Assembly: GCA_045863395.1 (NCBI GenBank)
Contig: BTVJ01000001.1
Span: 66,406 to 130,405, forward strand
Origin: Myxococcales bacterium
Lineage (GTDB): Bacteria; Myxococcota_A; UBA9042; JABWCM01; BTVJ01
Direction: 5' to 3'
DNA: 64,000 bases
Shown piece after piece: positions 14,574 to 47,493 of the stretch. The notes under the pieces were generated by a model. The model had not been told where the DNA came from, ran no database searches, and worked only from the letters and a program-made list of their open reading frames with translations. Position 1 is the first letter of the stretch. Every line of letters begins with the position of its first letter. The translations under genes were made by a program, and so were the position numbers.

Positions 14574-16568
14574 CTACTTGCACGCGTCCGGGCACCCATC
14601 CCCGTCGGTGTCGATGGGCGTGCCAATCAAGCACGCGAAGGCGTCGCAGAAGGCCTTGCAGCTATCGGGGCAGCCGTCGTTGTTCGTGTCGACGGCCTTG
14701 TAGCCCGGGGCGCAGTCGATGGCGAGCATGCAGTAGCACTTGTCGGGGCAGCCGTCGCCGTTGGTGTCGGTGGCCCACTGCTCCTTGGAGCAGAACAGCT
14801 CCTTGCACGCCGGCTTGCAGGCGTCGTCGCAGCCGTCGCCGTCCGAGTCGACGGGGTAGTAGCCCGGGGCGCAGTCGATGATCATGCCACACACGCAGCT
14901 CTCCAGGCAGCCGTCGCCATCCAGGTCCACGGGCAGCTTGGGCGGCTTGCAGAGCACGTTGTGGCAGGACTTCTGGCACGAGTCCGCGCAGCCGTCGCCG
15001 TTGGTGTCCACGGGGAAGTAGCCGGGCAGACAGTCGATGGCGTACTGGCACTGGCACAGGTCGTCGCAGCCGTCACCGTCCGCGTCCACGGGGACCGTCT
15101 CTTTCGAGCACTCGAGGGGCTTGCAGGCGCAACCCTCGTAGGCCTTCTTGCACGCCCCGAGATCCATGAACCCCGCGCCGCAGTCGGCCCCGGAACAAGA
15201 GCAGCCGCTCTGGCCGACGCACTCCTTGCCGTTCCAGAACCAGCCGAGGAACATGTCGCAGGCCCCGACGCCGTAGGCGTCCTGGGGCGCGCACGGGCTG
15301 ACCTTGCACTCCCCGTCGTGGGCCTTCTGGGCGCCGGCGGCGAGCCGCTCGCAGTCGTTTGGCCACGTGGTGCCCTTGCAGTCACAGACCGGCGCCCACA
15401 GCTTCGGGCAGACCTCGGGCTTCGGGACGCAGGTGCCCATGTTGTCCACGATGTCGCACGTGCCCGCCGGCATGTCGCAGAGGAGGCCCTCGGGACACAC
15501 GAACCCCGCGATGCCGCCACAGAACTGCGGCTTGCACTCGCCCTTGTAGGCGACGTTCACGCCGTTGCCCGCGGCCTCGCAACCGTTGCCGTAGGTCTTG
15601 CCGTCGCAGCCGCACACGGGGTCAAAGATCGCGATGCACGCCTCGGGGCGCGGCTGGCACTTGCCGCTGCCCTTGCAGCCATCCTTCGCGCAGTAGTCGC
15701 CCTCGGCGCAGTCCGCGTTGGACTCGCACGTGACCTCCATGCACTGCCAGGCGTCGGGCGGGATGAAGCCGCACTGCTCTTCGCAGAGGCCCAGATCGCT
15801 GCAGGTCCAGAAGTTGCCGCAGTTCATGCACTTGAGGAAGCAGCCGTTCTCGAACTCCAGGCCCGCGTCGTAGCAGTCGCAGCGCTCCTTGCAGCTCTTC
15901 TTGCAGGTGTCGTTGCAGCCGTCACCGTCCGAGTCCCAGGCGACGAAGCCAGCCGCGCACTTGATGGCGATGTCGCAGCAGGCCCCGTCGTGGTTCATGG
16001 ACACCCCGGCCGCCTTCATGTCGCACTCGTTCGAGTAGGTCTTGCCGTCGCAGCCGCACACAGGGTCCCACACGTCGGGGCAGGCCTGGGGAGGCTTGAC
16101 GCAGGTGCCCTGCATGTCGGCCCAGGAGCAGGTGCCCGGCGGATAGAGACAGAACGAGCCTCTGGGGCAGCCGACGCCAGCGATGCCGCCGCACTTGGGC
16201 ACGCACTTGCCATCGTGGTTCTTGCCGACCCCCGCCTTCAGGCGCTGGCAGTCATTGGCGTAGGTCTTGCCGTCGCAGCCGCAGACGGGCGCGCTCACGC
16301 GCGGGCACTCCGTCGGGGGCGTGACGCACTTGCCCCACCCACCCGGATTGCCGCATTGACCCGCGTGCCGCTCGCAGAGGCTCCCCTTCGGGCACTGCAG
16401 CTCCTTGGGTCCGCCGCAGAGCAGCGTCGCCTCCCCCTCCACCGTGGCGAGCTCGTTCGATCCCCCGAGCGTTCCCCGGCCGTCGCTCGGTGCGCCCACC
16501 TCGGCGCACGCGGCCAGCGCAAGCGCCGCGACAAACAGCGGCGCCCACAGCGGGTGCATCCTGATCAT
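14574..16568 (-). CDS. Secreted multi-Kazal-domain lipoprotein (putative serine-protease inhibitor) with C-terminal tandem Cys repeats.
   Basis: ATG 16568 with GGAGG 7 nt upstream. Lipobox LALAACAEV. At least five Kazal signatures: CPRVSAPVCGCDGKTYANDC, CPDVWDPVCGCDGKTYSNEC, CIAIFDPVCGCDGKTYGNGC, CPKLWAPVCDCKGTTWPNDC and others. C-terminus carries about six copies of IDCAPGYxxVDTxGDGCxDxCK. Confidence 0.8.
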   Translation of the reverse strand: MIRMHPLWAPLFVAALALAACAEVGAPSDGRGTLGGSNELATVEGEATLLCGGPKELQCPKGSLCERHAGQCGNPGGWGKCVTPPTECPRVSAPVCGCDGKTYANDCQRLKAGVGKNHDGKCVPKCGGIAGVGCPRGSFCLYPPGTCSWADMQGTCVKPPQACPDVWDPVCGCDGKTYSNECDMKAAGVSMNHDGACCDIAIKCAAGFVAWDSDGDGCNDTCKKSCKERCDCYDAGLEFENGCFLKCMNCGNFWTCSDLGLCEEQCGFIPPDAWQCMEVTCESNADCAEGDYCAKDGCKGSGKCQPRPEACIAIFDPVCGCDGKTYGNGCEAAGNGVNVAYKGECKPQFCGGIAGFVCPEGLLCDMPAGTCDIVDNMGTCVPKPEVCPKLWAPVCDCKGTTWPNDCERLAAGAQKAHDGECKVSPCAPQDAYGVGACDMFLGWFWNGKECVGQSGCSCSGADCGAGFMDLGACKKAYEGCACKPLECSKETVPVDADGDGCDDLCQCQYAIDCLPGYFPVDTNGDGCADSCQKSCHNVLCKPPKLPVDLDGDGCLESCVCGMIIDCAPGYYPVDSDGDGCDDACKPACKELFCSKEQWATDTNGDGCPDKCYCMLAIDCAPGYKAVDTNNDGCPDSCKAFCDAFACLIGTPIDTDGDGCPDACK

Positions 16569-16723: not shown

Positions 16724-18112
16724 CTACAGCGTGAACACCAAGTAGTACAGGATCTTGAGCATGACGCTGTCCGCCTGCTCGTCGTTGTGGAAGGTCGTGT
16801 AGACGAGGCGCCCCGCCCCGGGCTGGGGCTGGTGGGAGAGCACCACGGGCTGGATCAGCGTGAAGTAGTCCTTGAAGGGCGCGGGGTCCTCGAACTTCAC
16901 CGCCGCGGACACATGCACCGCGCTGCCGGGCCCCGGAGCCTCCACGGCGATGAGCGGACCCGGGCCGTACTTGGCGGTGAACGTCCCGACCCCGACGTAC
17001 TCGGACAGCTTCGGGTCGAGGATCGTGCACGGGATCGAGACGTTGGACGCCGCCTGCTGCGGTCCGTCGTTCGCCATGGGCGTCTTTGGCAGGTCCACCG
17101 AGCCGTAGAAGTCGAAGGCGTCGGGGAAGGCCGCCTCCAGGTAGGCCCACGCCAGGTCCGACGCATACAGGGAGCCCCCGCCAAGCACGAACTCCCGCAG
17201 GTTGTCCGCGATCTCCGGGTAGGAGTGCACGTACTTCAGCGGGGCGCTGCCACAGTTGAAGAACAGGACCTTGTACTGCGCCAGCAGCGCCGGGTCACGC
17301 AGCACCTGGACCGCCTCGATGTCGTCCGGGTCGACGTCGTTGAAGTACTCCCACTCGAACTCATAGTACGTGAAGTCGAACCCGAGCTGGTCGAGCAGCT
17401 CGTGCTGGTGGTCCCACTGGCCCCAGAACACCGCGATGGGTACGGCGTTGGCCTTGAAGCACTGCTTCTTGCCGACCCCCGAGAGGTCCGTCGTCTTCCC
17501 CGTCTTCACGTCGATGGTGTACTGGTTGGTGAAGGATCCCGCACTTACGTACACCTTGTGGAGGCCACAGGGCACCTCGGGGAACCAGTAGCTCCCGTCG
17601 GGCCCGGACCAGGTCTCCAAGGTTGCGGGCAGGCCGTCGCAGCCGATGACGCTGACCGTCACGTGGGCGTTCCCCACGTAGACCTGCTCACTCGGCGCGC
17701 AGATGATGCCCTTGACCGAGCCGGTGCCACAGGGAGTGCAGGACTCCGAGTGGCCGGTGTCGGGCGCTGCATCCTGCGTGTCCGCCGACGTCCCCGCGTC
17801 CAAGGCAGCGTCGTGGCTCGCTCCATCTGGTTGAGCGTCTGCCGCGGCGGCGTCAATGGTGGTGCTGCTCCCGGAGTTGGACGAGCCAGCGCCGTCGGCT
17901 GCCTCGAACCCGGGCGTGCACGGCCCGCAGTCGGCCCACCCGGAGCCGTCCTCGTTGCAGGTCTGAGTGCCCACTTGCCCGCCGGCGCAGGGACAGCTCA
18001 CCACCCTCCCCGCCTCGCAGACCGCCCCCCCGGAGTCTGCACCGGAACTGCAGCTCGCTGCCAGAAGGCCGCAGACCAGCGCTCCAAGAGCCCCATTGGA
18101 TGTCCTCCGCAT
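16724..18112 (-). CDS. Hypothetical secreted lipoprotein: Cys-rich N-terminus, carboxypeptidase-regulatory-like middle, unknown C-terminal domain.
   Basis: 462 aa. Lipobox LLAASCSSG. Middle segment HVTVSVIGCDGLPATLETWSGPDGSYWF. Confidence 0.6.
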   Translation of the reverse strand: MRRTSNGALGALVCGLLAASCSSGADSGGAVCEAGRVVSCPCAGGQVGTQTCNEDGSGWADCGPCTPGFEAADGAGSSNSGSSTTIDAAAADAQPDGASHDAALDAGTSADTQDAAPDTGHSESCTPCGTGSVKGIICAPSEQVYVGNAHVTVSVIGCDGLPATLETWSGPDGSYWFPEVPCGLHKVYVSAGSFTNQYTIDVKTGKTTDLSGVGKKQCFKANAVPIAVFWGQWDHQHELLDQLGFDFTYYEFEWEYFNDVDPDDIEAVQVLRDPALLAQYKVLFFNCGSAPLKYVHSYPEIADNLREFVLGGGSLYASDLAWAYLEAAFPDAFDFYGSVDLPKTPMANDGPQQAASNVSIPCTILDPKLSEYVGVGTFTAKYGPGPLIAVEAPGPGSAVHVSAAVKFEDPAPFKDYFTLIQPVVLSHQPQPGAGRLVYTTFHNDEQADSVMLKILYYLVFTL

Positions 18113-18245
18113 CGGGCGAGGCTAACTGTCCGAGGCCCTGTCCGTCAACGTCGCAGAACGCCTTGACACGCATGGGGCGCGGGAACAGGATGTCGGCCGC
18201 CGCCCCCGGAACGGCCCACGGCCAGGGGTCCGGCCCAGGAGCCGC

Positions 18246-21173
18246 ATGGCCACCAGAGACCCAGAAGACCCGCACGAACCCATCGAGGCGCTGGTCGATC
18301 ACCTGGCTCACCTGCTCCCCGGCCAGGGCCCGATCTCCGTGTTCGTCCACCACAACACGCTGCACGCCTTCGAGGACCGCCCGTTCGAGCGCGCGGTCGT
18401 GGAGGCGGGCGCGCTGTTCGGCTGCGAGCCCTGGCTGACCACGGGCGCCTACCGGGATGCCATCACCGAGGGGCGAATCACCGACGCGGACCTGGAGGCC
18501 GTCCTCGACGCAGAGGCGCAAGCGGACGCCCCCGTCGGTGGCGTGACGACGCGGCGCGCCATCCGCCTGCTGGTGCTGCGCCACGGGCTCCCCGAGGCGA
18601 GCGGCCAGGACCTGCGCTGGCTGCTCAGCGAGACCGACGCTCTGAGCAGCCTGCGCGCCGACGCCCCGGCGGCGGCGCGGATACGGCTCCACGGCGATCC
18701 GCCGACGTCCGAGGCAGCGGCCGCCCAAGCGCTGTGGGACGCGTGCCTGTCTGCCGTGAGCCCTCTGGCTCCGCCGCCTTCCCCCGCTCCCGCCAGGATG
18801 CCGCGCCACAGAGACCTCCTGCTGGCCGCGACTGGGGTGGACACGGACAGCATCGTCCATCCCGTGCTGATCCGCCTCTGCGCGGCCTGGCTCGACCAGG
18901 GACTCGCCTACTGGCCCATGCCGGATCGGGACCGCGGCCTCTGGGGGAGCGTCTGCTCGGTCTACGGGGGCGCCCGCTTCGTGGAGCCCTGGCTCACGGC
19001 GGCGGCCGCCGAGCTGTCCGGCGCTGGCGAGCCTGCCGCCGTGGTCACCCGCTCCCTTGCCGATCTCGGGGTGGAGCCGGGCGAGCGGCGGGCCTTCCTG
19101 ACGCCCACCCTGCTGGCCTTGCGCGGCTTCGGGGGCATGGTCCGGCAGCTCGAGGAGCGCCCCGACCGCGCCCCCACGAACCCGCTCCCGGCTCGGGTCT
19201 TGGACCTGCTCGCGCTGCGCCTGGTGCTCGAGCGCCACGCCCTGGCGCACGTCGCGCGGGAGACGCTGGGCTTCAGCGGCCCCCTGGCGTCGCTGCGCGC
19301 CCACCTGCGCGCCCAGCTCCCGCCACCCGTGGCCCCCACGGCGCAGGAGCGCGCGTGGCTCCTGTTCCAGCTCGCCCAGCTCCTCGGCCTGCCGGCAGCG
19401 CGGGTCCAGGGCCTGAGCGCAGACGACACGGCAGCGCTCCTCGCAGAGCTGGACGCCCTGCCCTCCCTCGAGAGGCGGCGCCTGCTCCACCTGGCCTACG
19501 AACGGAGCCACGCGACCATGGTCCTCGATGGGCTCGCGGTCCACACGGCCCACCCCCCGCACCCGCCGCCACCGGCCGAGTTCCAGGTGATCGCGTGCAT
19601 CGACGACCGGGAGGAGTCCCTGCGCCGCCACCTGGAGGAGCTCGCCCCGTCCTGCGAGACCTTCGGCGTCGCAGGGTTCTTCGGGGTCGCCATGTACTTC
19701 CGCGGCGCGGCCGACGCGCGCCCTCGCCCGCTCTGCCCGATCACCGTGCGTCCGGATCACCAGATCGGCGAGGAGGTGGACGAGGGTCTCACCGTACGGG
19801 CCGGCCGCCGCGAGCGAGCCCGACGCCTGATCGGCGGCGCCGCCATCTCGCTGCGCGTGTCGAGCCGGACCCTGGCCCGAGGGTCCGTGCTGACGGCGGC
19901 CCTGGGCCTCGCGGCCGCCGTCCCGCTGGTCCTGCGCGTCCTCTTTCCGCGGCTCGTCAGCGCCGCCAACGCCGCCGTCGCGTGGGTCCTGCGCCCGGCG
20001 TCCCGCTCGCGCCTCGCGCTGGACCGGCAACCCGCCGCAGCGCCCGTCCTCGGTACCTACGTGGGCTTCACCGTCGAGGAGATGGCCGGCATGGTACGCC
20101 GCCTCCTGGAGGACATCGGCCTGACCCGCCGCCTCTCCCGCCTGGTGCTGGTCCTCGGACACGGATCGTCCAGCGTCAACAACCCCCACCTGTCCGCCTA
20201 CGAGTGCGGCGCCTGCGGAGGGAACGGTGGCGGCCCAAACGCACGAGCATTCGCACAGATGGCGAATGACGGTCGCGTTCGCGCCATGCTCTCGACGCAA
20301 GGGATCGTCATACCGCCGGAGACACACTTTCTTGGTGCGTTTCACGACACGTGTCGCGACGCCATCTCCATCTACGACGAAGAGCGCATCCCCGCGACGC
20401 ACCGGGAGGCGGTCGCCCAGGTCCATCGGGTCCTGGACCAGGCGCGGGCCCGCAACGCCCACGAGCGGTCCCGCCGCTTCGAGTCCGCCCCCTCGTGGTT
20501 CCCCCCGGGCCTGGCCCTGGCCCACGTGGAAGGGCGCGCCAGCGATCTGGCCCAACCCCGCCCCGAGTACGGGCACTCCACCAACGCGGTCGCCATCATC
20601 GGGCGCCGCGAGCGTACGCGAGCCCTGTTCCTGGACCGCCGCGCCTTCCTCGTCTCCTACGACCCGACCACGGACCCGGACCGCTCGATCCTGGCTCGCG
20701 TCCTGGCGGCGGTTGTCCCCGTGGGCGTGGGGATCAACCTGGAGTACTGGTTCAGCCGGGTGGACCCGACCGGGTACGGGTGCGGGACCAAGCTGCCGCA
20801 CAACCTGACCGGCATGGTCGGGGTCATGGACGGCCACTCCAGCGACCTGCGCACGGGCCTGACGTGGCAGATGGTGGAGATCCACGAGCCCGTGCGCCTG
20901 CTCGTCATCGTGGAGGCCCCCCCCGAGGACCTGCTGCGGGTCGTGGCCGCCAATCCGAGCATCGAGCGCCTCGTCCGCAACCGGTGGATTCGCGTGGCCA
21001 CTCTGGCGCCCGACGGGGCGCAGCTCCACGTGCTGGGCCCCCATGGTGGCTTCGAGCCCTACGCGCCGTCATCGCGCCGGCTCCCCATCGTGCCCGCGTC
21101 GGCGGACTGGTACCGCGGCCACCGAGACCACCTTCGCTGTGCCCGCACGGGCCCCCTGGAGGTGAGCCTGTGA
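18246..21173 (+). CDS. dabA: DabA-like protein (DUF2309/UPF0753), the putative carbonic-anhydrase-like subunit of a DAB inorganic-carbon pump.
   Basis: 975 aa. Conserved Zn-site-like motifs IACIDDREES (Cys-x-Asp) and HGSSSVNNPHLSAYECGACGG (His..Cys), plus the C-terminal block NLEYWFSRVDPTGYGCGTKLPHN. GGAG 7 nt upstream of the ATG. Confidence 0.85.
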   Translation: MATRDPEDPHEPIEALVDHLAHLLPGQGPISVFVHHNTLHAFEDRPFERAVVEAGALFGCEPWLTTGAYRDAITEGRITDADLEAVLDAEAQADAPVGGVTTRRAIRLLVLRHGLPEASGQDLRWLLSETDALSSLRADAPAAARIRLHGDPPTSEAAAAQALWDACLSAVSPLAPPPSPAPARMPRHRDLLLAATGVDTDSIVHPVLIRLCAAWLDQGLAYWPMPDRDRGLWGSVCSVYGGARFVEPWLTAAAAELSGAGEPAAVVTRSLADLGVEPGERRAFLTPTLLALRGFGGMVRQLEERPDRAPTNPLPARVLDLLALRLVLERHALAHVARETLGFSGPLASLRAHLRAQLPPPVAPTAQERAWLLFQLAQLLGLPAARVQGLSADDTAALLAELDALPSLERRRLLHLAYERSHATMVLDGLAVHTAHPPHPPPPAEFQVIACIDDREESLRRHLEELAPSCETFGVAGFFGVAMYFRGAADARPRPLCPITVRPDHQIGEEVDEGLTVRAGRRERARRLIGGAAISLRVSSRTLARGSVLTAALGLAAAVPLVLRVLFPRLVSAANAAVAWVLRPASRSRLALDRQPAAAPVLGTYVGFTVEEMAGMVRRLLEDIGLTRRLSRLVLVLGHGSSSVNNPHLSAYECGACGGNGGGPNARAFAQMANDGRVRAMLSTQGIVIPPETHFLGAFHDTCRDAISIYDEERIPATHREAVAQVHRVLDQARARNAHERSRRFESAPSWFPPGLALAHVEGRASDLAQPRPEYGHSTNAVAIIGRRERTRALFLDRRAFLVSYDPTTDPDRSILARVLAAVVPVGVGINLEYWFSRVDPTGYGCGTKLPHNLTGMVGVMDGHSSDLRTGLTWQMVEIHEPVRLLVIVEAPPEDLLRVVAANPSIERLVRNRWIRVATLAPDGAQLHVLGPHGGFEPYAPSSRRLPIVPASADWYRGHRDHLRCARTGPLEVSL

Positions 21174-22507
21174 GCCCGGAGCTGTTGGCGACGACCCTCG
21201 CGTTGTCGTCCGCGTTTGCCCCCGCGGCCCTCTTCGCCACCCTCGGCGTCGCGTCCCTCGCGGGGCGCCCTCTCCCCGAGGGGGTCACGGGGACGCTGGT
21301 CCGCTTCACGTTCACGCTGGCGGTCCTCTGCAACCTTGCGCTGATCGGCGTGATGGCCTCGGCGGGCCTCGACCGGCTCGTCATTCCTCTCGGCGCCTGG
21401 TTCTCGGTCGGCCACTACTCCTTCCACGTGGGCCTGCTCATCGACCGGCTCTCGGCCCCCTTCGCCTTGCTCACCGTGGTCCTCTGCGGCGTCGTCGGCT
21501 CCTTCGCGCACCGCTACCTGCACCGGGAGCCAGGCTACAACCGCTTCTTCGTCCTGCACGCGCTGTTCGCCACCGGCATGACCCTGACTGTGCTCGGGGC
21601 CTCCATCGAGACGATCTTCTTCGGCTGGGAGCTCGTGGGCCTTGCCTCCGCGCTGCTCATCGCCTTTTACCACGAGCGCCCCGAGCCGGTCCGAAACGGC
21701 CTGCGCACCCTGGCCATCTACCGCCTCACCGACATCGGCCTGCTCGGCGCCGCGGTCCTGCTGCACCACCTGGTCGGCACGGGTCAGCTCCTGCACGTCC
21801 TTGGAGACGCCCCCTGGCCACACGGCGCGACCGCCATCGACGCGGGACCGGCGACCGCCGCCGCGCTCCTGCTCATGATCGCGGCCATCGGCAAGTCCGC
21901 GCAGTTGCCGCTCTGCGGGTGGCTCCCGCGCGCCATGGAGGGGCCCACCCCGTCGAGCGCCATCTTCTATGGGGCCCTCTCCGTGCACGCCGGGGCGTAC
22001 CTGCTGCTGCGGGCGGCCCCCCTGCTCGACCGCTCGCCCGCTGCGGCCGCCGCGGTCACCGTTATCGGCGCCCTGACCGCCCTGCACGCCACCTTCGTCG
22101 GGCGCGTCCAGTCCGACGTCAAGTCGGCGCTGGCCTATGCGTCGCTCACCCAGGTGGGCGTGATCATCGCCGAGGTGGGCCTCGGGTTCCGCTGGCTCCC
22201 GGTGGCCCACGCCGTGGGCCACGCCTGCGTCCGCACGCTCCAGCTCCTGCGGGCCCCGTCGGCGCTGCACGACTTCACCACCACCGCCAACGCGGTCGGC
22301 GGAGTGGTGCCGCGGACGGGCGGCCACCTGGAGCGCCTGGTCCCGCCCTCCTGGCAGCGCCACCTCTATCGCTGGAGCCTGGAGCGCGGCCACCTGGACC
22401 CCTGGCTCGACCGCTGGGTCGTCGCGCCGGTGCTGCGCGCCCTCCGGGTCCTCGACCGCGCCGAGCGTCGCTGGACCGACCGGCTCGGGGGTGGACGTCG
22501 TGGCTGA
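21170..22507 (+). CDS. dabB: DabB-like NuoL/MnhA-family proton-translocating membrane subunit.
   Basis: GTG 21170 overlaps the dabA stop (GTGA). Polytopic. Motif LCGWLPRAMEGPTPSSAIFYGALSVHAGAYLLLR matches the NuoL/MrpA [22 protein letters not shown] signature. ORF-track entry 20351..22507 is extended upstream out of frame with dabA. Confidence 0.8.
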   Translation: MSPELLATTLALSSAFAPAALFATLGVASLAGRPLPEGVTGTLVRFTFTLAVLCNLALIGVMASAGLDRLVIPLGAWFSVGHYSFHVGLLIDRLSAPFALLTVVLCGVVGSFAHRYLHREPGYNRFFVLHALFATGMTLTVLGASIETIFFGWELVGLASALLIAFYHERPEPVRNGLRTLAIYRLTDIGLLGAAVLLHHLVGTGQLLHVLGDAPWPHGATAIDAGPATAAALLLMIAAIGKSAQLPLCGWLPRAMEGPTPSSAIFYGALSVHAGAYLLLRAAPLLDRSPAAAAAVTVIGALTALHATFVGRVQSDVKSALAYASLTQVGVIIAEVGLGFRWLPVAHAVGHACVRTLQLLRAPSALHDFTTTANAVGGVVPRTGGHLERLVPPSWQRHLYRWSLERGHLDPWLDRWVVAPVLRALRVLDRAERRWTDRLGGGRRG

Positions 22508-23924
22508 GCTCTCCTTCCCGTGGCTGACCCTCGTTGTCGCCCTCCCGACGCTGGCCTCGGCGATCACCTGGCTGCGCCTCCGCCCGGAGACGGTCCGCCG
22601 CGTCTCCCTCGCAGGTGTGGGGCTCACCCTCGGGGTCGCGATCGCCGTCGCGTGGGTCTCCGCTGGGCAGGGTCCCCTGCGGGACCCCCTGCTCGGCGCC
22701 ATCGCGGGCCGCCCCCTGCTCGGCGTGGACGAGCTGTCAGCCCTGCTCCTGCCCTTCGGCGCGCTGGTCTTCGCGCTCGTGGTGCTCGTGATGCCCCTCA
22801 CCCGGCTGGGCACCCACGAGGAGCCGCGCACACTGGCAGCCGAGGCCATCGTGCTCGCTACGTTCTGTGCCCAGGATCCCGTGGTGCTCGCCGTGCTGTG
22901 GGCCTTCGCAATCATCCCACCACTGCTCGCCCTGAGGGCGCGCGGCGAGGCGACGGCGGGGACCCTGCGTGTCTTCGCCGTCTACATGGGCGTCGCGGTG
23001 GTCACGTTCGTGGCCGGCGCCGTCCTCCTCGCAGTGGGGGGCGACGCCGCGCTGGTCGGCTCGGCGCTGGTGACCGCGGCCGTGCTGGTGCGCAAGGGCA
23101 TCGTCCCCATGCACTCCTGGCTTCCCCCCCTCATGGAGCGCGGCCCCATGAGCCTTGCGACGCTGTTCTCGGTGCCACAGCTCGGCGCCTACGCCTTCGT
23201 CCGCCTCGTGTTGCCGACCGCCCCGGACGACCTCCTCAGCATCGTCGGCGAGCTGTCCCTGCTGACCGCCGTGTATGGCGCCGCCCTGGCCCTGGTCCAG
23301 ACCGAGGCCCGGCGCGCCTTCGGGTTCCTCTTCCTGAGTGAGTCGGCGCTGGTCCTCGCGGGCCTGGAGGGCGCCTCCGAGGTCGGCCTGACCGGCGCCC
23401 TGGTCGTGTGGCTGTCCGCCGGCCTCGCGCTGACGGGCTTCGGCATGACCTTGCGTGTGTTGGAGGCGCGCCGAGGCGACCTCTCGCTGCTCCACTTCCA
23501 CGGGGGCTACCGCAGGACGCCGCTGCTCGCTGCGTGCTTCCTGCTCCTGGGCCTGGCGAGCGCCGGCTTCCCCGGCACCCTCGGCTTCATCGGCGGCGAG
23601 CTCCTCATCGACGGCGCGGTCGCCGCCCACCCCCAGGTGGGCTTCGCCGTGGTGCTCGCGGCGGCGCTGAACGGCATCACCGTCATTCGCATGTACGGCG
23701 TGCTCTTCGCGGGAGCCCGGCGCCACGCCCCGTATTCCCAGCGCCTTCGACGCCGGGAGGCCCTCGGCTTCCTCACCCTGGTCGCGTTGCTTCTGGCCGC
23801 GGGACTGGCACCACGCGCGCTGGTCTCCTCTCGAGCCCGGGCCGCCGCAGAGTCCCTGGAGTCTCGCACGTCTCGTGCCAGCGCCCCGAGCGCCGAGCTT
23901 GATCCAGATCAATCCCAGGATTGA
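22491..23924 (+). CDS. Second antiporter-like membrane subunit, NuoM/NuoN/MrpD family.
   Basis: 477 aa, polytopic. Motif IVPMHSWLPPLMERGPMSLATLFSVPQLGAYAFVRLVLP matches the NuoM/MrpD TWLPDAH-type signature. Overlaps dabB by 17 nt. Confidence 0.75.
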   Translation: MDVVAELSFPWLTLVVALPTLASAITWLRLRPETVRRVSLAGVGLTLGVAIAVAWVSAGQGPLRDPLLGAIAGRPLLGVDELSALLLPFGALVFALVVLVMPLTRLGTHEEPRTLAAEAIVLATFCAQDPVVLAVLWAFAIIPPLLALRARGEATAGTLRVFAVYMGVAVVTFVAGAVLLAVGGDAALVGSALVTAAVLVRKGIVPMHSWLPPLMERGPMSLATLFSVPQLGAYAFVRLVLPTAPDDLLSIVGELSLLTAVYGAALALVQTEARRAFGFLFLSESALVLAGLEGASEVGLTGALVVWLSAGLALTGFGMTLRVLEARRGDLSLLHFHGGYRRTPLLAACFLLLGLASAGFPGTLGFIGGELLIDGAVAAHPQVGFAVVLAAALNGITVIRMYGVLFAGARRHAPYSQRLRRREALGFLTLVALLLAAGLAPRALVSSRARAAAESLESRTSRASAPSAELDPDQSQD

Positions 23925-24200
23925 GCAAGATCAATGCGCGAGCCACGAGACAGGGAGTATGGTTCCCGTCGTTGCCCCGACAGACGAACCAGAGAGGCAG
24001 GAGATAGCACCTCTGGACCACCATGGAGGTCACGGGCCACAGACCAGAGAGAATTTCGGAGTGGGTGTGGCGTCGGTGGCCCGGCGTCGGCCGGCTGGGT
24101 GGCCGGTCAGACATTTCGTCACGGGATCAACGGGTTTCGGGGTTCGAGAGCGCGAAGACGTCGCCGGGAGTCGAACCCCGAGGGTAGACTGGAGGAAGTC

Positions 24201-24542
24201 ATGTTCGTTCGCAAGCTCGTCACATTCATCTCGACCGCAGCTCTCACCACCGTCCTGGGAGTCGGCCTCGCGTCCGCAGATGGCAAGGACATCTTCACCA
24301 AGAACGGCTGCACCAAGTGCCACTCGGTCAAGAGCGCCGGCGTGATGAAGGAGGGCGGCGAGGAGGCGAAGGGCACCAAGGAGCTGTCCACGGTCGGCTC
24401 CCGGGAGGGCGTCACGGAGGACGCGCTGAGCGGCTTCCTCAAGAAGACGTCCGAGCTCCACGGAAAGAAGCACGCGAAAGAGTTCAAGGGGAGCGACGCA
24501 GACCTCAAGGCGCTCGTCGGCTGGCTCGCCAGCCTGAAGTAG
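24201..24542 (+). CDS. Small class I c-type cytochrome.
   Basis: ATG 24201 with GGAGG 6 nt upstream. 113 aa. Signal peptide MFVRKLVTFISTAALTTVLGVGLASA. Single CxxCH heme site, GCTKCH. Confidence 0.75.
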   Translation: MFVRKLVTFISTAALTTVLGVGLASADGKDIFTKNGCTKCHSVKSAGVMKEGGEEAKGTKELSTVGSREGVTEDALSGFLKKTSELHGKKHAKEFKGSDADLKALVGWLASLK

Positions 24543-24719
24543 CGTCCACCACTCAGAGCAGGGCTCCGCGGCCACCGCGTACCACGAAGACCCCCGTACC
24601 GACGGCGACCCGAGCAGGTCGCGTGCTACGACGCCTCACCAACGAGACAACCAGCTACTCACTGACTGCTACGGGCCGCGGAGCTCTGCGCTCGACTCGC
24701 ACGGCGGACAGCCGCGCTG

Positions 24720-27029
24720 TCAGGGGAGAGTCTCTGGAGCGCGCGTCCGGAATCGGCCATCGATTTCGCCTATCAGGTCGACGACGCTGTCCATGTAGCG
24801 CAGGTCGTCTCGCTCCTCCGCCCACCGGTTGGCGAGCAGGTTCAGGTAGAGGCTGCCGTCGTGGCACTCCATGACGAGCTGGGAGCTGGGAATCGACCGC
24901 TCCTCGCAGGATTCGTGGGGACCTGTGCAGGCTGGGTCCATGCACAGGCGCGTCCCGCTCGGCCCCTTGCGGCATGCGCACTCCCGCTGCCCGGTCACCT
25001 GGTCCACCCAGCAGCACGACCCGTCCGGAATGACGACGAGCACCCGCGCGAGCTGCCCATCGATCATGAAGGGAGCCAGGGCGACGCTGGCTGGCGCCAG
25101 GTCGACGGGCTCCTGCCCGTGCCCGTGCAGCATGAAGATCACGGGATAGCGCTGGTCCGCGAAGGCGGGGTCGTTGTAGCCAGGCGGCAGGATGGCGGTG
25201 TAGTTGCGGCGCGCCTTCATGGAGGGGCTGTAGAAGGTCAGGTTCTGGCTGAGATCCGACGTCAGGCCACCTCCCTTGCGGATGTCCGGGTCCGGCATGC
25301 GGCGGACCGCGAACGCGAGGAAGCCCACGAGCCGGTTGAGGGCCTGACCGATGTTCCCGACGTGCTTGCCGTCGCCCTTGTCGATCTGCGCCTGGGTCGC
25401 GTCCGGGCTCCCGTACTCCACCAGGACGTGCTTGCCGATGCCCTTCGCCGAGATGTCCGCCGACTGGATGGCGCCGATGAAGGCGTCCTCCTGGGAGTCG
25501 GGGAGCAGCGCGTCGGGGGCGCCTGCAAAGTTGTGATAGACCCGGATGTCCTCGCCCCGCGCCCGCAACGCCCCCACCACCTGCCGAGTGGCGACGAGCG
25601 AGTGCAACGTATCGCGGATGCCGCCATCGAACCAGAAGTCCAGGTTCTCGAGGTCTTCGGCCGGGAGATTCCGGATCTGCGTGAGCGCGTCCACGGCGCG
25701 CATGCGGTCAAACGCCGCGGTATAGTCGTAGACCCCGTTGCCCTCCCCATGGTCGGCGAACCCGCTCAGTCCCGCAGGGACCCCGTCGACTCCGAGGTCA
25801 TCAAAGGGCTCCCCGAACTCGTAGGACTCGTTGCCCTCCGTCCCCTCCGGCTTGTCCCACCAGTGGTAGTCATCGCCGTTGGGGTCTCCGTCGGCGGCGA
25901 TGGCCTCCGAGGGGAGACACCCGCCCAACCCATCCTCTCGGGAGCTGGGGCAGCCGTCGGCGCCGACGTCGCTCCACCGCTCGGCGGGGTTCACGAGGAT
26001 GGGCTCCCCCAGGTCGCGGCGCCCGTTGCCGTTGATGTCCACGGCCAGGAGCACGTCGACGGGGCGATCGTGCGCCACGGCCGGGTCGAACTCGTTCTTC
26101 GCCAGGCCAGGGGTCACTTGCTTGTCGGAGTCGCAAAACGGGATCACGGGCCAGGCTCCCGCCGGGTTGTACTCGGCGTTGAAGGATGCCTCGGCCGGTA
26201 CGGGCAGGGGGGCGGCGCAGCGGTCTTTCGGACTGGTGGAACTCCACCACTCCCACGACACGCCCGCCGGCAGGTAGGCGCTCTTTCCTTGGGCCGTCGA
26301 GAAGTTGCCGAAGGCCATCATGAACGACTGGAGGATGTCGGCGTAGAACTCGCGGTCGAAGGTCTTGCCGTCGTTGTCGAAGTGAAGGTGGTTCCAGTCC
26401 TGGGCGAACTCGTACTCGAAGGTGGGCTGCACCGGTCCACACGTCACAGGGGGAACGGCGACAGCATCGTTCAGGTCTGGAGCCGCCTCGAGCTGCTCCA
26501 GCGGGCAGAAGCCGCCGAGGTGGAGCCGCCTCCCCGCGGGCACGAAGTACGAGAAGTTGATGTAGCCGCCCATGGCGCCTACCACGTCGAACTTCTCTGG
26601 GTTCTGCAGCGCGATGAAGGCCGCCGCGGCGCCCATGGACACGCCACCGATGGCCCGGAAGTTCCATGTGCGCGGGGGGCCGGGTGGGTCGTCGGGCCCC
26701 GCGTCGGACTCGGCGTCTGGGTGCGCGTCCGGCGCAGCGTCCGGCGCGTCGGGCCCGGCGGCGTCCGGTGATCCGCCGACGTCATGCAGGGGGACATCGA
26801 CGGTCGCGTCCGTGGCCGCCGTGTCCTCGACGTGGGCCTCGTCGACGGCGGCGTCTTTGGCGGTGGCGATGTCGAGCCCCCCTGTGGCGGCATCCGCAGC
26901 GCTCGGCCCATCGCCGCCGCACCGGGACGCGGCGGTCACCATGAGCAAGGAGGCGAGCGTCCAGCGAACCGCCATCCAACGTGGGACAGTCTGGCGGAGG
27001 GGACCAGGGGGCCGTGTCAGAGGAGCCAT
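24720..27029 (-). CDS. Secreted alpha/beta-hydrolase, putative esterase family.
   Basis: Signal MAVRWTLASLLMVTAASRCGG. GxSxG nucleophile GGVSMGAAAAF and FMLHGHGQEP. Alternative start ATG 26975. Overlaps the stop of upstream gene 27017..30589 by 13 nt. Confidence 0.7.
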   Translation of the reverse strand: MAPLTRPPGPLRQTVPRWMAVRWTLASLLMVTAASRCGGDGPSAADAATGGLDIATAKDAAVDEAHVEDTAATDATVDVPLHDVGGSPDAAGPDAPDAAPDAHPDAESDAGPDDPPGPPRTWNFRAIGGVSMGAAAAFIALQNPEKFDVVGAMGGYINFSYFVPAGRRLHLGGFCPLEQLEAAPDLNDAVAVPPVTCGPVQPTFEYEFAQDWNHLHFDNDGKTFDREFYADILQSFMMAFGNFSTAQGKSAYLPAGVSWEWWSSTSPKDRCAAPLPVPAEASFNAEYNPAGAWPVIPFCDSDKQVTPGLAKNEFDPAVAHDRPVDVLLAVDINGNGRRDLGEPILVNPAERWSDVGADGCPSSREDGLGGCLPSEAIAADGDPNGDDYHWWDKPEGTEGNESYEFGEPFDDLGVDGVPAGLSGFADHGEGNGVYDYTAAFDRMRAVDALTQIRNLPAEDLENLDFWFDGGIRDTLHSLVATRQVVGALRARGEDIRVYHNFAGAPDALLPDSQEDAFIGAIQSADISAKGIGKHVLVEYGSPDATQAQIDKGDGKHVGNIGQALNRLVGFLAFAVRRMPDPDIRKGGGLTSDLSQNLTFYSPSMKARRNYTAILPPGYNDPAFADQRYPVIFMLHGHGQEPVDLAPASVALAPFMIDGQLARVLVVIPDGSCCWVDQVTGQRECACRKGPSGTRLCMDPACTGPHESCEERSIPSSQLVMECHDGSLYLNLLANRWAEERDDLRYMDSVVDLIGEIDGRFRTRAPETLP

Positions 27030-30000
27030 GTGATGATGATGCCCTTGATCAGGTCCGCGACGAGGCTCTGCGCGATGCCGTCCGTGGCCACCGACACGTC
27101 GAGGTCCACCGAGGCGGGCGCGCCCTCGTCGATGTCGGCGGCGAGGACGAAGCGCACGGTCAGGAACACGGGGTTGCCAACGACCTCACCTTGCTCGTCC
27201 AGCCAGGCCGTGGAGAGAGGCGAGGTGGGGTCACCGGCGTTGACGATGATCACGCCACCGAAGCCGCTCCAGTCTGCGATCTTCGTCGGGGCGATGCTGA
27301 CCGAGTGTCCCGACTGGAGCGAGGTGGAGCCGGCGCCGGTGGCGGGTACATCGAAGCAGTTGGGACCGAAGCACCAGCGGGAGTAGAAGTTGTCCAGAGT
27401 CAGGGCCGCCGTATCGTACGAGAGGGTGAACTCCAAACCCGTCGGGACTGGCTCCGCCTCGGAGGCACGGGCGATGCGAAGTGAGCAGTCCACCGTCGCC
27501 CCCTTCACTCCGAACACCGTGCAGAAGGTCGTGGAGCACGATGGATTGAGCGTCCCACCCGCGCACTGTCCTGCCTCGCACGAGTCGTCGAGCGTGCACT
27601 CGTCGCCGTCGTCGCAGGGCACCCCCGACGAGGGCGCGTGGGAGCAGCCAGCCACCTCGGCGCAGGAGTCCACCGTACAGGGGTTCCCATCGTCGCACGC
27701 CGCGTTCTGCGGCGCATGCAGGCACTGGCCCCCAATGCCGCAGGAGTCCAGTGTGCATGGGATGCCGTCGTCGCACGCCTTGGGACCGCCGGGCTTGCAC
27801 GCGGTGCCGTTGCACCCGTCCCCCTCGGTGCAGGGGTTACCGTCGTCACAGGGCGTCCCGCCCGCAGCCGCCGTGGACACGCAGCCGCTCAGAGTGCTGC
27901 ACGTGTTCGCGGTGCATGGGTTCCCGTCCTCGCAGACGCCATGGTCGGCCACATGCTTGCACCCAAAGCCCTGCACACACGAGTCGGCCGTGCAGAGGAT
28001 GCCGTCATTGCAGGCGGCGTCTGTGGGCGAGAAGACGCAGCCGCTCACCGGATCGCACGTGTCGAGCGTACAGGCGATGCCGTCGGTGCACGACGCGTTG
28101 TTTGGAGTGAACGTGCACCCGGTCTGCGGGTTGCACCCGTCCTGTGTGCAAGGGATGCCGTCGCTGCAGACCAGCGGCGTCCCCTTCGCGCAGGCCCCTG
28201 CGTTGCACTTCTCCGTTCCCGTGCAGACGCTCAGATCGTCGCAGTCGCCATCCACGGTGCACTCCGCAGACTCCTCCTTGCAGTCCGCGTCACAGCCGTC
28301 GAGCGGGTCCTTGTTCCCGTCATCGCACTCCTCCCCCGGGTCCAGGAAGTCGTTGCCGCAGGACTCGTCGGAGGTGCAGTCCGCACTGCAGCCGTCGCCG
28401 CCATCCTGGTTGTCGTCATCGCAGACCTCGCCGCAGGCCCAGTCGGTGGTGCCGTCGCCGCAGTAGGGAGCAGGGCCGTCCAGCTCGCAGCCCCCGCTCG
28501 CGATGTTGCACACCTCGACGCCGTTGCAGGGGTCGCCATCGTCGCAGACCAGCGGCGCTCCAGGGGTGCACGTCCCGCCAGCGCACTTGTCGTTGGCCGT
28601 ACACGGGTCCCCGTCGTCGCAGGGAGCGCTGTTGAAGCTGTGCCCGCACCCACCGCCGGTGCAGAAGTCCGTCGTGCAGGGGTTGGCGTCCTCACAGTCC
28701 TTGAGGCTCCCGGGGACGCACGCGCCGGAGTCGCAGGAGTCACCCTCGGTGCAGCCGTCGCCGTCACTGCACGGTCCCTCGACGGGCTGGTTGATGCACG
28801 TGCCGGTCAGGGCGTTGCACAGGTCGCTGGTGCAGGGGTTCTTGTCATCGCAGGTGTTGACGCCCTTTGGGAGACAGGCGCCGTCCTTGCAGGCATCCCC
28901 CGTCGTGCACGAGTCCCCATCGTCGCAGGGGAGGGTGTTCGGGGTGTGCTTGCACCCCGTCGCGGGGGCGCAGGTGTCGGTGGTACAGACGTCTCCGTCG
29001 TCACACGCTTTGGTGGTCCCAACGCACGCCCCACCCGCGCAGGAGTCGTTCTCGGTGCAGGCGTTGCCATCGTCGCAGGCGCCGGCTGTCGGCTCGTTGA
29101 GGCAGGACCCACCCGCGCATGAGTCCACGGTGCAGGGGTCGCCGTCGCCGCAGTTGATCAGGGTCCCTTTGCACGCCCCGGCGGCGCAGACATCATTGTA
29201 TGTACAAGCGTCTGCGTCATCACACGCGCCAGCGTTGGGCTCGTGCTTGCAGCCCCCCGGGGAGCCGGTGTCGCACGTGTCCTTGGTACAGACATTTCCG
29301 TCGTCGCAGTTGACGGCGATCGGAGTGTTGAGGCAGCCGCCGGTCTTCGGGTCGCACGCGTCGGTCGTGCATGGGTCGCCGTCGTTGCAGTCGATGGCGA
29401 CCGGTGTATAGAGGCACCCTCCGGTGAGGGGGTCGCAGGACACGTCCGTGCACCCGTCGCCGTCGTTGCAGAACAGCGGCTTGAGCGCCGAGGTGCACTC
29501 ACCGGTCAGCGGATCGCAGCCGTCGTTCGTGCACAGGCTCCCGTCGTCGCAGTCGAGGGCTACCGGGGTGAACGCACAGCTCCCCGTCTCTGGATCGCAG
29601 GCGTCATCCGTACAGAGGTTCCCGTCGAAGCAGTTGCCTGCGGCTGGGACGTGGGCACAGGTCCCGTCGTCAGGGTTGCAGGCGTCGTCGGTGCACTCGT
29701 TGTCGTCATCGCAGTCCAGCACCGCGGGCAGGGACACGCAGCCTCCGCTCCCGGGATCGCACGCGTCCGTCGTGCAGGCGTCGCCATCGTCGCAGCCAAG
29801 CAGACCCTGCCCCTTGCAGGCACCTTGCGAACACACGTCCCCGAGGGTACAGGGGTCGCCGTCGTCGCACGCCTTCGTGTTGGGGTTGTTTCGGCAGCCC
29901 TTCTTCTTGTCACACGTGTCCGTTGTGCAGGGGTTGTCGTCTTCGCAGTCGTCCTGCACCCCTTGGCAGCCGCCCCCGTCGCACTCGTCTTCGATGGTGC

Positions 30001-30589
30001 AAGGATCGCCGTCGTCGCACGCCAGCCCATCCTTCATGGCTCCGGTCTGGCACGCGCCGTCCTCGCAGCTCGCGGTCTGACAGGAGATGCCCTCCACCAG
30101 ATAGGCACAGTCGTCATCCTTGGAGCACTCGCTGGCGCCGGCGTCGAGGTCACCCCCCGTGTCGCCCTGAATGACCGTAACCTTGATGGACGCCCGCCCG
30201 GCGGTCCCACCGACGGCCTCACCGGCGTCGTCCACCACCTCGACTGCGATGGTGTGCGCCCCGAGGGGCACCGCAGTGAAGGTGAACCCGTCCCCCTCGA
30301 AGATGCGGCCCTTCTCCTTGCCGTCCAGCGTCATGGTGAGAACGTTGCCGAACTCCGACAGCTCGATGCCTTCCACCTCCACCTTGACGACGATGTCGGC
30401 GTCGAAGCCCGGAGTCTCGATGACCGCGCCATCGGTGGGCGACGCGATGGTGAGGCGTAGCTCGGTGCCGCCAGCGTCCTTGGCTCCACCGAACCCGGAG
30501 AAGGGCGGGAGCTTGGATGCCTCCACGCACCCCAAGGCGAGGGGCACGAGCGCGGCCAGGAGCCACTGAACCGAGCGGGTCACCGTCAT
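27017..30589 (-). CDS. Giant secreted Myxococcus-type cysteine-rich repeat lipoprotein (1190 aa), with an N-terminal Ig-like domain and a ~160-aa C-terminal domain shared with four neighbouring genes.
   Basis: ATG 30589 with GGAGG 6 nt upstream. Lipobox LALGCVEAS. More than 25 CxDDGNPCTxDxC repeats. Block of [18 protein letters not shown]../CGNDFLDPGEECDDGN motifs. C-terminal domain contains ..[42 protein letters not shown]. Confidence 0.8.
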   Translation of the reverse strand: MTVTRSVQWLLAALVPLALGCVEASKLPPFSGFGGAKDAGGTELRLTIASPTDGAVIETPGFDADIVVKVEVEGIELSEFGNVLTMTLDGKEKGRIFEGDGFTFTAVPLGAHTIAVEVVDDAGEAVGGTAGRASIKVTVIQGDTGGDLDAGASECSKDDDCAYLVEGISCQTASCEDGACQTGAMKDGLACDDGDPCTIEDECDGGGCQGVQDDCEDDNPCTTDTCDKKKGCRNNPNTKACDDGDPCTLGDVCSQGACKGQGLLGCDDGDACTTDACDPGSGGCVSLPAVLDCDDDNECTDDACNPDDGTCAHVPAAGNCFDGNLCTDDACDPETGSCAFTPVALDCDDGSLCTNDGCDPLTGECTSALKPLFCNDGDGCTDVSCDPLTGGCLYTPVAIDCNDGDPCTTDACDPKTGGCLNTPIAVNCDDGNVCTKDTCDTGSPGGCKHEPNAGACDDADACTYNDVCAAGACKGTLINCGDGDPCTVDSCAGGSCLNEPTAGACDDGNACTENDSCAGGACVGTTKACDDGDVCTTDTCAPATGCKHTPNTLPCDDGDSCTTGDACKDGACLPKGVNTCDDKNPCTSDLCNALTGTCINQPVEGPCSDGDGCTEGDSCDSGACVPGSLKDCEDANPCTTDFCTGGGCGHSFNSAPCDDGDPCTANDKCAGGTCTPGAPLVCDDGDPCNGVEVCNIASGGCELDGPAPYCGDGTTDWACGEVCDDDNQDGGDGCSADCTSDESCGNDFLDPGEECDDGNKDPLDGCDADCKEESAECTVDGDCDDLSVCTGTEKCNAGACAKGTPLVCSDGIPCTQDGCNPQTGCTFTPNNASCTDGIACTLDTCDPVSGCVFSPTDAACNDGILCTADSCVQGFGCKHVADHGVCEDGNPCTANTCSTLSGCVSTAAAGGTPCDDGNPCTEGDGCNGTACKPGGPKACDDGIPCTLDSCGIGGQCLHAPQNAACDDGNPCTVDSCAEVAGCSHAPSSGVPCDDGDECTLDDSCEAGQCAGGTLNPSCSTTFCTVFGVKGATVDCSLRIARASEAEPVPTGLEFTLSYDTAALTLDNFYSRWCFGPNCFDVPATGAGSTSLQSGHSVSIAPTKIADWSGFGGVIIVNAGDPTSPLSTAWLDEQGEVVGNPVFLTVRFVLAADIDEGAPASVDLDVSVATDGIAQSLVADLIKGIIITWLL

Positions 30590-45815: not shown

Positions 45816-46196
45816 GCGGTTCCTCCCGTTGGTGGCCAGCCACTGGCCGTTGCAGAGCCCCTGATCGACCACCAACGGCCGCCCTGGTGCTCTGCGCCCG
45901 ACGCGACACACCAGCAAGCCGGACCCGGGACAACCCTCGCGGGACTGCCGGTCCTGGTCGTCGGGCGAACGGACGCTCAATGCCGATCCCTAGCTCTGTT
46001 CGACCCTCCCAGTCAACGCCAAACATCCACGCGGCCATCGGGGGGGGAGGACGCTGTCACCCGTCCGAGGGCATCGATGGCGCTCCGGACCGCGGCCCAA
46101 GCGCACTTCAGCGTCAGGGGAATCCGTTGAGGCCCCCCCTGGTTTGTGCTACGGTCCGCGACCCTGGGCGGGAGCAACGGAAGTGATCGAGGGTTC

Positions 46197-47483: not shown

Positions 47484-47493
47484 GTCCGCCCCA

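Follow-up and report, generated by a model that had tools for sequence, protein, structure and literature searches.

A DAB-type operon with a truncated DabB and a full-length NuoM-like third subunit in a Myxococcota genome

The operon and its relatives

A three-gene operon on contig BTVJ01000001.1 of a Myxococcales bacterium (assembly GCA_045863395.1), located in a stretch of 64,000 nucleotides with a GC content of around 70% that we analyzed as a whole (hereafter the window), encodes a DabA-type protein, a short NuoL-like DabB, and a NuoM/MrpD-like third protein that we call P3. All three open reading frames (ORFs) and the motifs quoted for them in a first-pass annotation of the window are present in the sequence as described there, and the genes are arranged as follows (TM, transmembrane helix; CA, carbonic anhydrase):

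18246..21173 (+): dabA, encoding a 975-aa cytoplasmic beta-CA-like subunit of the long form (PF10070), homologue of the solved DabA2 (9rd0_A)
21170..22507 (+): dabB, short form, encoding a 445-aa NuoL-like protein with TM1-TM11 and a cytosolic helical tail (PF00662 and PF00361)
22491 (probably GTG 22500)..23924 (+): P3, encoding a NuoM/MrpD-like subunit with 14 TMs (PF00361), by sequence a full-length homologue of DabC

Each gene overlaps the next, as can be read directly from the sequence. AGGAG lies 5 nt upstream of the dabA ATG, and the junction of dabA and dabB is a GTGA overlap with GGAGG 7-8 nt upstream, in line with the translational coupling that had been proposed for these two genes. 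The 17-nt overlap originally reported between dabB and P3 holds if P3 starts at GTG 22491, but GTG 22500 is more likely the start, giving a protein of 474 aa and an overlap of 8 nt, because this agrees both with the 8-nt overlap in the related loci L001 and L088 (see below) and with the 474 aa of P0001, a database protein with 97% identity. A scan of positions 17900-24900 found no sigma-70 promoter or intrinsic terminator, but such a scan is uninformative at 70% GC.

The arrangement is not unique to this genome and marks a large clade that spans several phyla. Scanning one genome per GTDB species with a P3 profile returned at least 599 candidate stretches, at least 522 of which were confirmed by tblastn. 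We analyzed the best 80 of these at least 522 loci; 75 of them contain enough upstream DNA to be informative, and the contigs of the other five end early. DabA followed by short DabB was found by tblastn directly upstream of P3 in all 75 informative loci. Reconstructed ORFs are around 950-1090 aa (DabA), 450-470 aa (DabB), and 460-530 aa (P3) long, and the DabB/P3 junction usually overlaps by 1, 4, or 8 nt. The hosts are mostly Planctomycetota and Acidobacteriota (Vicinamibacterales). Locus L001, at around 50% identity to the window, encodes a DabA of 1010 aa, a PF00662/PF00361 protein of 446 aa, and a PF00361 protein of 493 aa in the same order, while the operon of the Myxococcota contig L088 (Myxococcota_JABWCM01_2) is 64-78% identical. 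Plasmids in PLSDB, examined as a source of DAB1 and DabC, yielded only canonical two-gene operons with dabB before dabA (Methylocystis, Mycolicibacterium, Pantoea), which served as comparators.

Some loci of the clade have features of their own. Divergently upstream of dabA in L001 (1-3382) lie genes for an HTH_17/PTS-EIIA2 regulator, a 658-aa PF00361 protein, and a NuoH-like protein, and a histidine kinase gene is found near around 22 clade loci, mostly upstream. Three Gemmataceae assemblies (L002-L004) carry an intact P3 homologue without DabA (e.g., L002 1200-3355), preceded by a 255-aa chimeric ORF composed of a PP2C/SpoIIE fragment and the last ~94 residues of DabB, an arrangement suggestive of a DAB locus that has decayed or been rearranged.

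The three subunits and the relationship of P3 to DabC

The Pfam searches suggested in the first-pass annotation matched all three products. PF10070 scored 777 bits on product 1 with the whole model covered (1-747), and the window DabA aligned to the solved H. neapolitanus DabA2 (9rd0_A) with E=5.6e-66 and with CID, GHGSS, and CGAC in register; IACIDDREES and HGSSS..YECGACGG are both present in its translation. The following features of DabA are central to our analysis:

19596..19610 (+): C451-I-D453-D-R455, first zinc ligand and Asp/Arg dyad (CxDxR motif of beta-CAs), codons checked
19881..19994 (+): membrane hairpin (elbow/finger motif), residues 546-583, with hydropathy peaks at 548-579
20160..20207 (+): H639 ... 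C654, second and third zinc ligands within NNPHLSAYECGACGG
20547..20576 (+): D-L768-AQP-RPEYG-H777, clade-specific form of DW(xxx)RPEWGL

C451, D453, and R455 (C449, D451, and R453 of T. albus DabA) as well as H639 and C654 are invariant in 65/65 clade sequences, confirming product 1 as a DabA with its zinc ligands. Around the second and third ligands, the clade consensus is NNPH(E/K)SA(Y/H)DCGACGG, and the DabA1 counterpart is NNPYESALDCGACGG. The N-terminal part is as long as in DabA1 (C451 here and C449 in T. albus, compared with C351 in DabA2). The catalytic residues, the GxAGFF lid motif, and the loop contacting DabB are conserved in the clade as in the solved DABs.

Two elements of DabA have a form of their own in the clade. 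The membrane hairpin, with R564 invariant and P560, P568, and G554 also conserved in 64-65 of the 65 sequences, aligns with the finger motif of DabA2, which with its Glu444 takes the place of NuoL Lys399/Asp400 (PMC13144422), but shows an alanine and no acidic residue at the Glu444 position. Furthermore, all 65 clade sequences contain D[LIMF]xxxRPE[YFC..]x[H/N] and none has the terminal leucine, whereas DWxxxRPEWGL is found in 74/74 DabA sequences bearing the DabA1 motif and also in DabA2. This leucine (L825 in T. albus) was proposed to disfavor stable bicarbonate binding; in ordinary beta-CAs and in CsoSCA, the site is occupied by Gln or His (bioRxiv 10.64898/2026.05.01.722082).

For product 2, the assignment as NuoL-like was upheld by matches to PF00662 and PF00361, and its translation contains the WLPRAMEGPTPSSAIF motif. 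Among NCBIfam models, NuoL is nearest, though under the curated cut-off and only over model positions 18-357 of 615 (233 bits, compared with 118 bits for the NdhF3 model TIGR01960). What had gone unnoticed is that this DabB is truncated: It covers only residues ~33-365 of NuoL and residues 48-354 of the 551 of DabB2 (9rd0_B, E=3.3e-25), ends after TM11 without TM12-15, and has no hydrophobic segment past residue ~355 but a tail of ~90 soluble residues (~356-445) with conserved motifs. In the AlphaFold model (predicted local distance difference test score, pLDDT, of 89.7), TM11 runs on into cytosolic helices, and the top Foldseek matches are NuoL/ND5 proteins over ~360 columns at 30-33% identity (E. 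coli NuoL, TM1-11). The 120 homologues found in databases are 418-527 aa long, nearly all of them 436-492 aa. Two groups of residues stand out:

21629..21895 (+): E154, R185, D188, and K242 of DabB, both NuoL-type interface ion pairs kept
21968..22234 (+): central polar residues Y267, H273, H347, H351, and R355 of DabB, invariant across the family

Every residue of the N-side proton path is conserved in the window DabB. The sites of the central polar residues are occupied by H254, T260, H334, H338, and K342 in NuoL and by H, N, H, H, and K in other DabBs, so that the family has a tyrosine at the position of NuoL His254, an invariant histidine (H273) six residues beyond it, and an arginine (R355) for NuoL Lys342. 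The residues of the interface ion pairs are invariant in 72-73 of 73 sequences. In complex I, the Glu144-type ion pair lies at the subunit interface, and DabB2, which has no partner, has lost it in that Ile151 replaces the glutamate of the NuoL Glu144/Arg175 pair (PMC13144422). At the Glu144 position, the clade has an invariant Glu, whereas two-gene DabBs have Ile or Thr, DabB1 proteins have His, Tyr, or Phe, and DabBs from loci with two NuoL-like genes have Gln, except for a Glu in one locus (L150). Apart from L150, the clade is the sole DabB lineage with both complex-I-type interface ion pairs, and it is also the one whose partner, P3, retains a TM12 Glu.

The third product matched PF00361 at 76.6 bits and the NuoM model TIGR01972 over positions 1-478 of 486 (135 bits, under the model cut-off). 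Its AlphaFold model, built from 69 sequences, reached a pLDDT of 94.1 and a predicted template modeling score of 0.93, and it superposed on full-length NuoM, ND4, NdhD, and MrpD chains with TM-scores of 0.84-0.87. Together with the conserved synteny, these results bear out the earlier view that P3 is a genuine, separate NuoM-like gene. When E. coli NuoM, NuoN, and NuoL were aligned with 82 family members, two charged residues stood out:

23091..23093 (+): R201 of P3 (TM7), at the position of NuoM K234, Arg in 82/82 family members
23598..23600 (+): E370 of P3 (TM12), aligned with NuoL D400 and one residue beyond NuoM E407, conserved in ≥90% of family members

Other residues of the NuoM proton path are replaced. 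The position of NuoM Glu144 (TM5) is occupied by A/S/V/I/T, that of Lys265 (TM8) by an invariant proline (Pro229), after which comes Gln in most members (Gln230 here) and some other neutral residue in the rest, and that of His348 (TM11) by V/A/I, so that P3 lacks a titratable central chain. His322 of NuoM is mostly His in the family and Glu284 in the window. The two halves of the protein differ in constraint, with 79 columns at ≥90% identity in the C-terminal half, the portion retained in short DabC, and 15 in the N-terminal half.

To regard canonical DAB operons as two-gene units, as in the first-pass annotation, is incomplete because DAB1 is a DabA/DabB/DabC heterotrimer, and P3 is homologous to DabC. 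The DAB1 genes of H. neapolitanus are hneap_0907 (DabA1, 1046 aa), hneap_0908 (a small membrane protein), and hneap_0909 (DabB1, 559 aa; Desmarais et al., bioRxiv 10.1101/476713). The heterotrimer of T. albus was solved at 2.1 Å by cryo-electron microscopy, and its DabC superposes on the helices of NuoM beside NuoL, is hydrophobic at the sites of the NuoM proton path, and was judged non-conducting, yet is essential in vivo (bioRxiv 10.64898/2026.05.01.722082).

DabC candidates were obtained by scanning JGI metagenomes for the 15-residue DabA1 motif NNPYESALDCGACGG as a degenerate DNA pattern, which yielded 80 loci. Canonical DAB1 loci encode a DabB (~559 aa), a protein of 247-274 aa with 4-8 hydrophobic segments (short DabC), and a DabA (~1040 aa), in agreement with the gene sizes of H. 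neapolitanus DAB1. Loci of a second kind contain one or two NuoL-like genes (~521-608 aa), a membrane protein of 433-439 aa (long DabC), and DabA, and those of a third kind encode fusions of DabB and the small protein (760-858 aa). Within the second kind, a tandem pair of NuoL-like genes (~565-590 aa each) followed by long DabC and DabA forms a four-gene layout (L104, L113, L119, L125, L168, and also L098, L135, and L148) of which the DAB papers that we examined make no mention; L091 and L152 have a single NuoL-like copy. The fusions in L110 and L122 (760 aa) and L169 (858 aa) look like natural DabB-DabC fusions in that the short-DabC profile hidden Markov model aligns with the last ~200-250 residues of each; in L110 and L122, DabA comes immediately afterwards, and in L169 the reconstructed ORFs overlap.

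Profile comparisons with hhalign connected, with the probabilities given here, the P3 family to the 435-aa long DabC (98.3%, E=1.4e-14, P3 3-448 with 1-419) and to the 250-aa short DabC (90.7%, E=1.2e-6, P3 205-440 with 22-249), long to short DabC (97.6%, E=3e-12, 165-411 with 12-249), P3 to NuoM over the full length (99.2%), and long DabC to NuoM (97.2%). Negative controls ranged from 0.1% to 0.5%; with short DabC, an unrelated SulP family and NuoM each scored 0.5%, and NuoL and the short-DabB family each scored 0.2%. Plain HMMER searches likewise connect P3 with long DabC and long DabC with short DabC, and the PF00361 score falls from P3 over long DabC (35-43 bits) to short DabC, which has no match. 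P3 is therefore a full-length homologue of DabC that links DabC to NuoM at the level of sequence, which agrees with the structural observation in the DAB1 preprint. Neither form of DabC has R201 or E370, whose sites are hydrophobic there, and P3 thus stands midway from a pumping subunit to the hydrophobic DabC.

The operon encodes what is generally found in a DAB, a PF10070 DabA with a Cys/Asp/His/Cys zinc site and an adjoining NuoL-like PF00361 DabB, but falls outside DAB1, DAB2/MpsAB, and complex I/Mrp. With DAB1 it shares the presence of three subunits, a long DabA (975 aa, compared with 1046 aa), the extension of DabB TM11 into cytosolic helices, and a homologous third subunit that in DAB1 holds the NuoM position. 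However, the gene order is A-B-C, unlike in DAB1, which has DabC between A and B; P3 has 474-477 aa, 14 TMs, a PF00361 match, and the conserved R201 and E370, in contrast to the ~250 aa of DabC without any Pfam match; DabB has 445 aa and no TM12-15 instead of 559 aa with displaced TM12-15; Glu stands at the NuoL Glu144 position instead of H/Y/F; and DabA carries NNPHLSAYECGACGG and DLAQPRPEYGH in place of the strictly conserved NNPYESALDCGACGG and DW..RPEWGL of DabA1.

DAB2 and MpsAB resemble the operon in having PF10070 and NuoL-like PF00361 partners with the same zinc ligands, a DabA hairpin in DabB, and the Lys/Asp pair. They have no third subunit where three genes are conserved here (MpsC of S. 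aureus is dispensable and not syntenic elsewhere; PMC6689103), a shorter DabA (~830-870 aa for DabA2), and a DabB of 506-551 aa with TM12-15 (TM12-14 being tilted outward in DabB2; PMC13144422) and with Ile or Thr in place of Glu154; the finger Glu444 of DAB2 has no acidic counterpart in the window DabA. NDH-1MS (NdhF3/NdhD3/CupA, PDB 6tjv) is similar in that a NuoL-like and a NuoM-like subunit bear a zinc-dependent CO2-hydrating subunit, and DabB aligns to NdhF3 (6tjv_F), while P3 aligns to NdhD3 (6tjv_D) over its full length. However, CupA is unrelated to DabA, the module belongs to a redox-driven NDH-1 of which no other subunits are linked here, and there is no special sequence affinity to NdhF3. 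Regarding complex I and Mrp, P3 has the fold of NuoM/MrpD and DabB corresponds to NuoL TM1-11 with its interface ion pairs, but DabB stops short of TM12-16 and the long lateral helix, neither the TM5 Glu nor the TM8 Lys is found in P3, both proteins score under the NCBIfam cut-offs for NuoL and NuoM, and no NuoA/H/J/K/N or MrpB/C/E/F/G partner genes flank the operon in the window. While three-subunit DABs are already known in the form of DAB1, we found no description of a DAB with truncated DabB and NuoM-like subunit in the searchable full-text literature, and this variant is undescribed as far as those papers show.

Proposed mechanism and alternatives

We consider it probable (around 0.65) that the operon represents a third architectural class of DAB/DAC systems, in which CO2 hydration is driven by the proton-motive force and P3 forms a scaffold or gate at the position of NuoM. 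DabA would be a cytoplasmic, zinc-dependent beta-CA-like enzyme that converts CO2 to bicarbonate in a buried site and inserts a two-helix hairpin into the membrane, while DabB would be a NuoL-derived proton conduit cut down to TM1-11 whose following cytosolic helices contact DabA. Going by its homologues in the two solved DABs, DabB would let protons flow inward along its N-side path, and this flow would drive a conformational cycle that makes hydration one-way. P3 would stand beside DabB as NuoM stands beside NuoL because its homologue DabC is found there in the solved structure, because the constrained half of P3 is the half facing NuoL, because Glu370 would then face the retained ion pairs of DabB (Glu154/Arg185 and Lys242/Asp188), and because partner-less DabB2 has lost the glutamate. 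Having neither the TM5 Glu nor the TM8 Lys, P3 more likely serves as a scaffold and electrostatic gate than as a second pump. Given the missing TM12-15, TM9-11 of DabB and the two hairpin helices of DabA may form a distal bundle.

Several points weigh against this interpretation. The position of P3 is deduced from homology with DabC and NuoM, and P3 could also pack on the distal side, against the hairpin of DabA, because DabB has no TM12-15. In contrast to the hydrophobic DabC, the central axis of P3 is still polar in part (R201, Q230, a His at 284 in most members, and E370), and an Arg at the TM7 site also occurs in DabB1, which is regarded as proton-conducting, so that P3 might have a conducting role. 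The catalytic cycle of DabA may differ from those of both solved DABs because of the His/Asn at the Leu825 position and the missing Glu444 equivalent in the hairpin. Finally, short DabC is a putative assignment made from position, size, and the neighboring DabA1 motif rather than from the published DabC sequences of T. albus or H. neapolitanus.

A more far-reaching scenario, which we find doubtful, is that the clade is the least reduced, near-ancestral form of DAB, in which a NuoL-NuoM pair of the complex I/Mrp type captured a beta-CA. DabC (shrinking from 435 to 250 aa) and the two-gene DAB2 would have arisen as the NuoM-like partner degenerated and disappeared step by step, while P3 would retain a part in charge transfer or gating via Glu370, R201, and Glu154/Arg185 of DabB. 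With His/Asn at the Leu825 site and a DabB devoid of TM12-15, the catalytic cycle would be mechanistically unlike that of both solved DABs.

The first-pass annotation had instead suggested a pair of active ion-translocating modules, DabB and P3, that drive one DabA in the manner of MrpA/MrpD or NuoL/NuoM and might change the ion:CO2 stoichiometry or the ion used. This would fit the complete 14-TM antiporter-like fold of P3 with its invariant TM7 Arg (found in DabB1 too), the His of VPxHxW, and the conserved TM12 Glu, as well as the complex-I-type interface ion pairs in DabB, which are used in lateral coupling. However, P3 is unlikely to be a second, independent ion module because it lacks the TM5 Glu, replaced (A/S/V) in every family member, and the TM8 Lys, which has given way to Gln or a different uncharged residue behind the invariant Pro; the TM7 Lys has become Arg, and with V/A/I at the NuoM His348 position no titratable central chain is left. 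In addition, the N-terminal half of P3, which holds the canonical input half-channel, is poorly conserved, and the homologous DabC was judged non-conducting in the solved structure.

It is even harder to see the complex not as a one-way CO2 hydrator but as a reversible CA gated by the proton-motive force or as a cation-coupled bicarbonate transporter, as has been proposed for MpsAB, a reading that we consider improbable. In its favor are the His/Asn of the clade DabA at the site of the leucine that is proposed to keep bicarbonate from binding stably, the argument that MpsAB is a Na+/HCO3- symporter, and the SulP and beta-CA genes that many clade loci also contain. However, the catalytic residues, the GxAGFF lid, and the loop that contacts DabB match those of the solved DABs, and no residue evidence points to Na+ specificity. 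An artefact, with P3 as the C-terminal half of a dabB broken by a frameshift or with the second and third genes as a stray Mrp or complex I fragment beside dabA, is refuted despite a DabB ~100 aa shorter than canonical (445 aa, compared with 506-559 aa) and the database annotation of DabB and P3 as NuoL and NuoM, since P3 aligns to NuoM across TM1-TM14 and thus does not represent the missing TM12-15 of DabB, gene sizes, order, and overlaps recur in the 75 informative genomes of different phyla, no other nuo or mrp genes adjoin in the window, and one sequencing error common to the assemblies of all relatives is implausible.

Surroundings of the operon and biological role

Downstream of the operon, the window contains the following gene:

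24201-24542 (+): small cytochrome c (113 aa) whose N-terminus resembles a signal peptide, with GGAGGAAG as ribosome-binding site

We considered this cytochrome c as a fourth member of the operon but rejected it, as its start is probably ATG 24201, 276 nt past P3. The gene is kept only in L088, the closest Myxococcota relative, and missing from the 80 GTDB loci. L088 shares the downstream genes of the window, encoding the cytochrome c, a 769-aa esterase-like protein, and proteins of ~1190 aa and ~2840 aa, which together with the shared operon supports the assignment of the window to Myxococcota.

Further away, the window encodes a Kazal-domain protein (14574-16568, -), two large proteins rich in Dictyostelium-type (Dicty_CTDC) repeats (27017-30589, -, and 42036-45980, -), a 2839-aa ORF that is syntenic with L088 (32835-41354, -), and a UvrA-like protein of 2004 aa with extra matches to ABC/STAND-type ATPases (46804-52818, +), which are typical of the secreted and giant proteins of myxobacteria. 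The extreme AT skew (0.53) in the bin at 56-58 kb is due to tandem repeats of 24 nt and 30 nt at 57349-57903 (13.5 and 7.2 copies; 90-94% matches), presumably coding for a repeat protein rich in Ala, Glu, Gln, and Arg.

In other genomes of the clade, a SulP-STAS-PII transporter gene lies directly 3' of P3 in around 23 of 74 loci, in some of them overlapping P3 (e.g., L051 11458-13449), and a beta-CA gene is found nearby in around 6 of 74 (e.g., L051 15493-16215, -). With such neighbors, a role of the clade loci in inorganic-carbon supply would fit. Neither a SulP nor a beta-CA gene is present in the window, and no carbon-fixation or carboxylase genes were found among the window ORFs scanned. 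For this Myxococcota genome, the supply of bicarbonate for carboxylations is the likely role of the operon, and in a heterotroph, an anaplerotic function would be plausible.

Autotrophs that do not photosynthesize, as well as many heterotrophs and pathogens, capture CO2 mainly by means of DAB pumps. How these pumps are coupled and what the role and origin of DabC are is under current study; the two cryo-electron microscopy papers date from 2026. The chain of sequences from NuoM over P3 and long DabC to short DabC provides evidence at the level of sequence that DabC derives from NuoM, and the clade offers natural "mutants" of residues implicated in the mechanism, with Glu for Ile151 of DabB, His/Asn for Leu825 of DabA, no Glu444, and no TM12-15. 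Soil and aquatic heterotrophs among the Planctomycetota, Acidobacteriota, and Myxococcota carry a DAB type of their own, often beside SulP and beta-CA genes.

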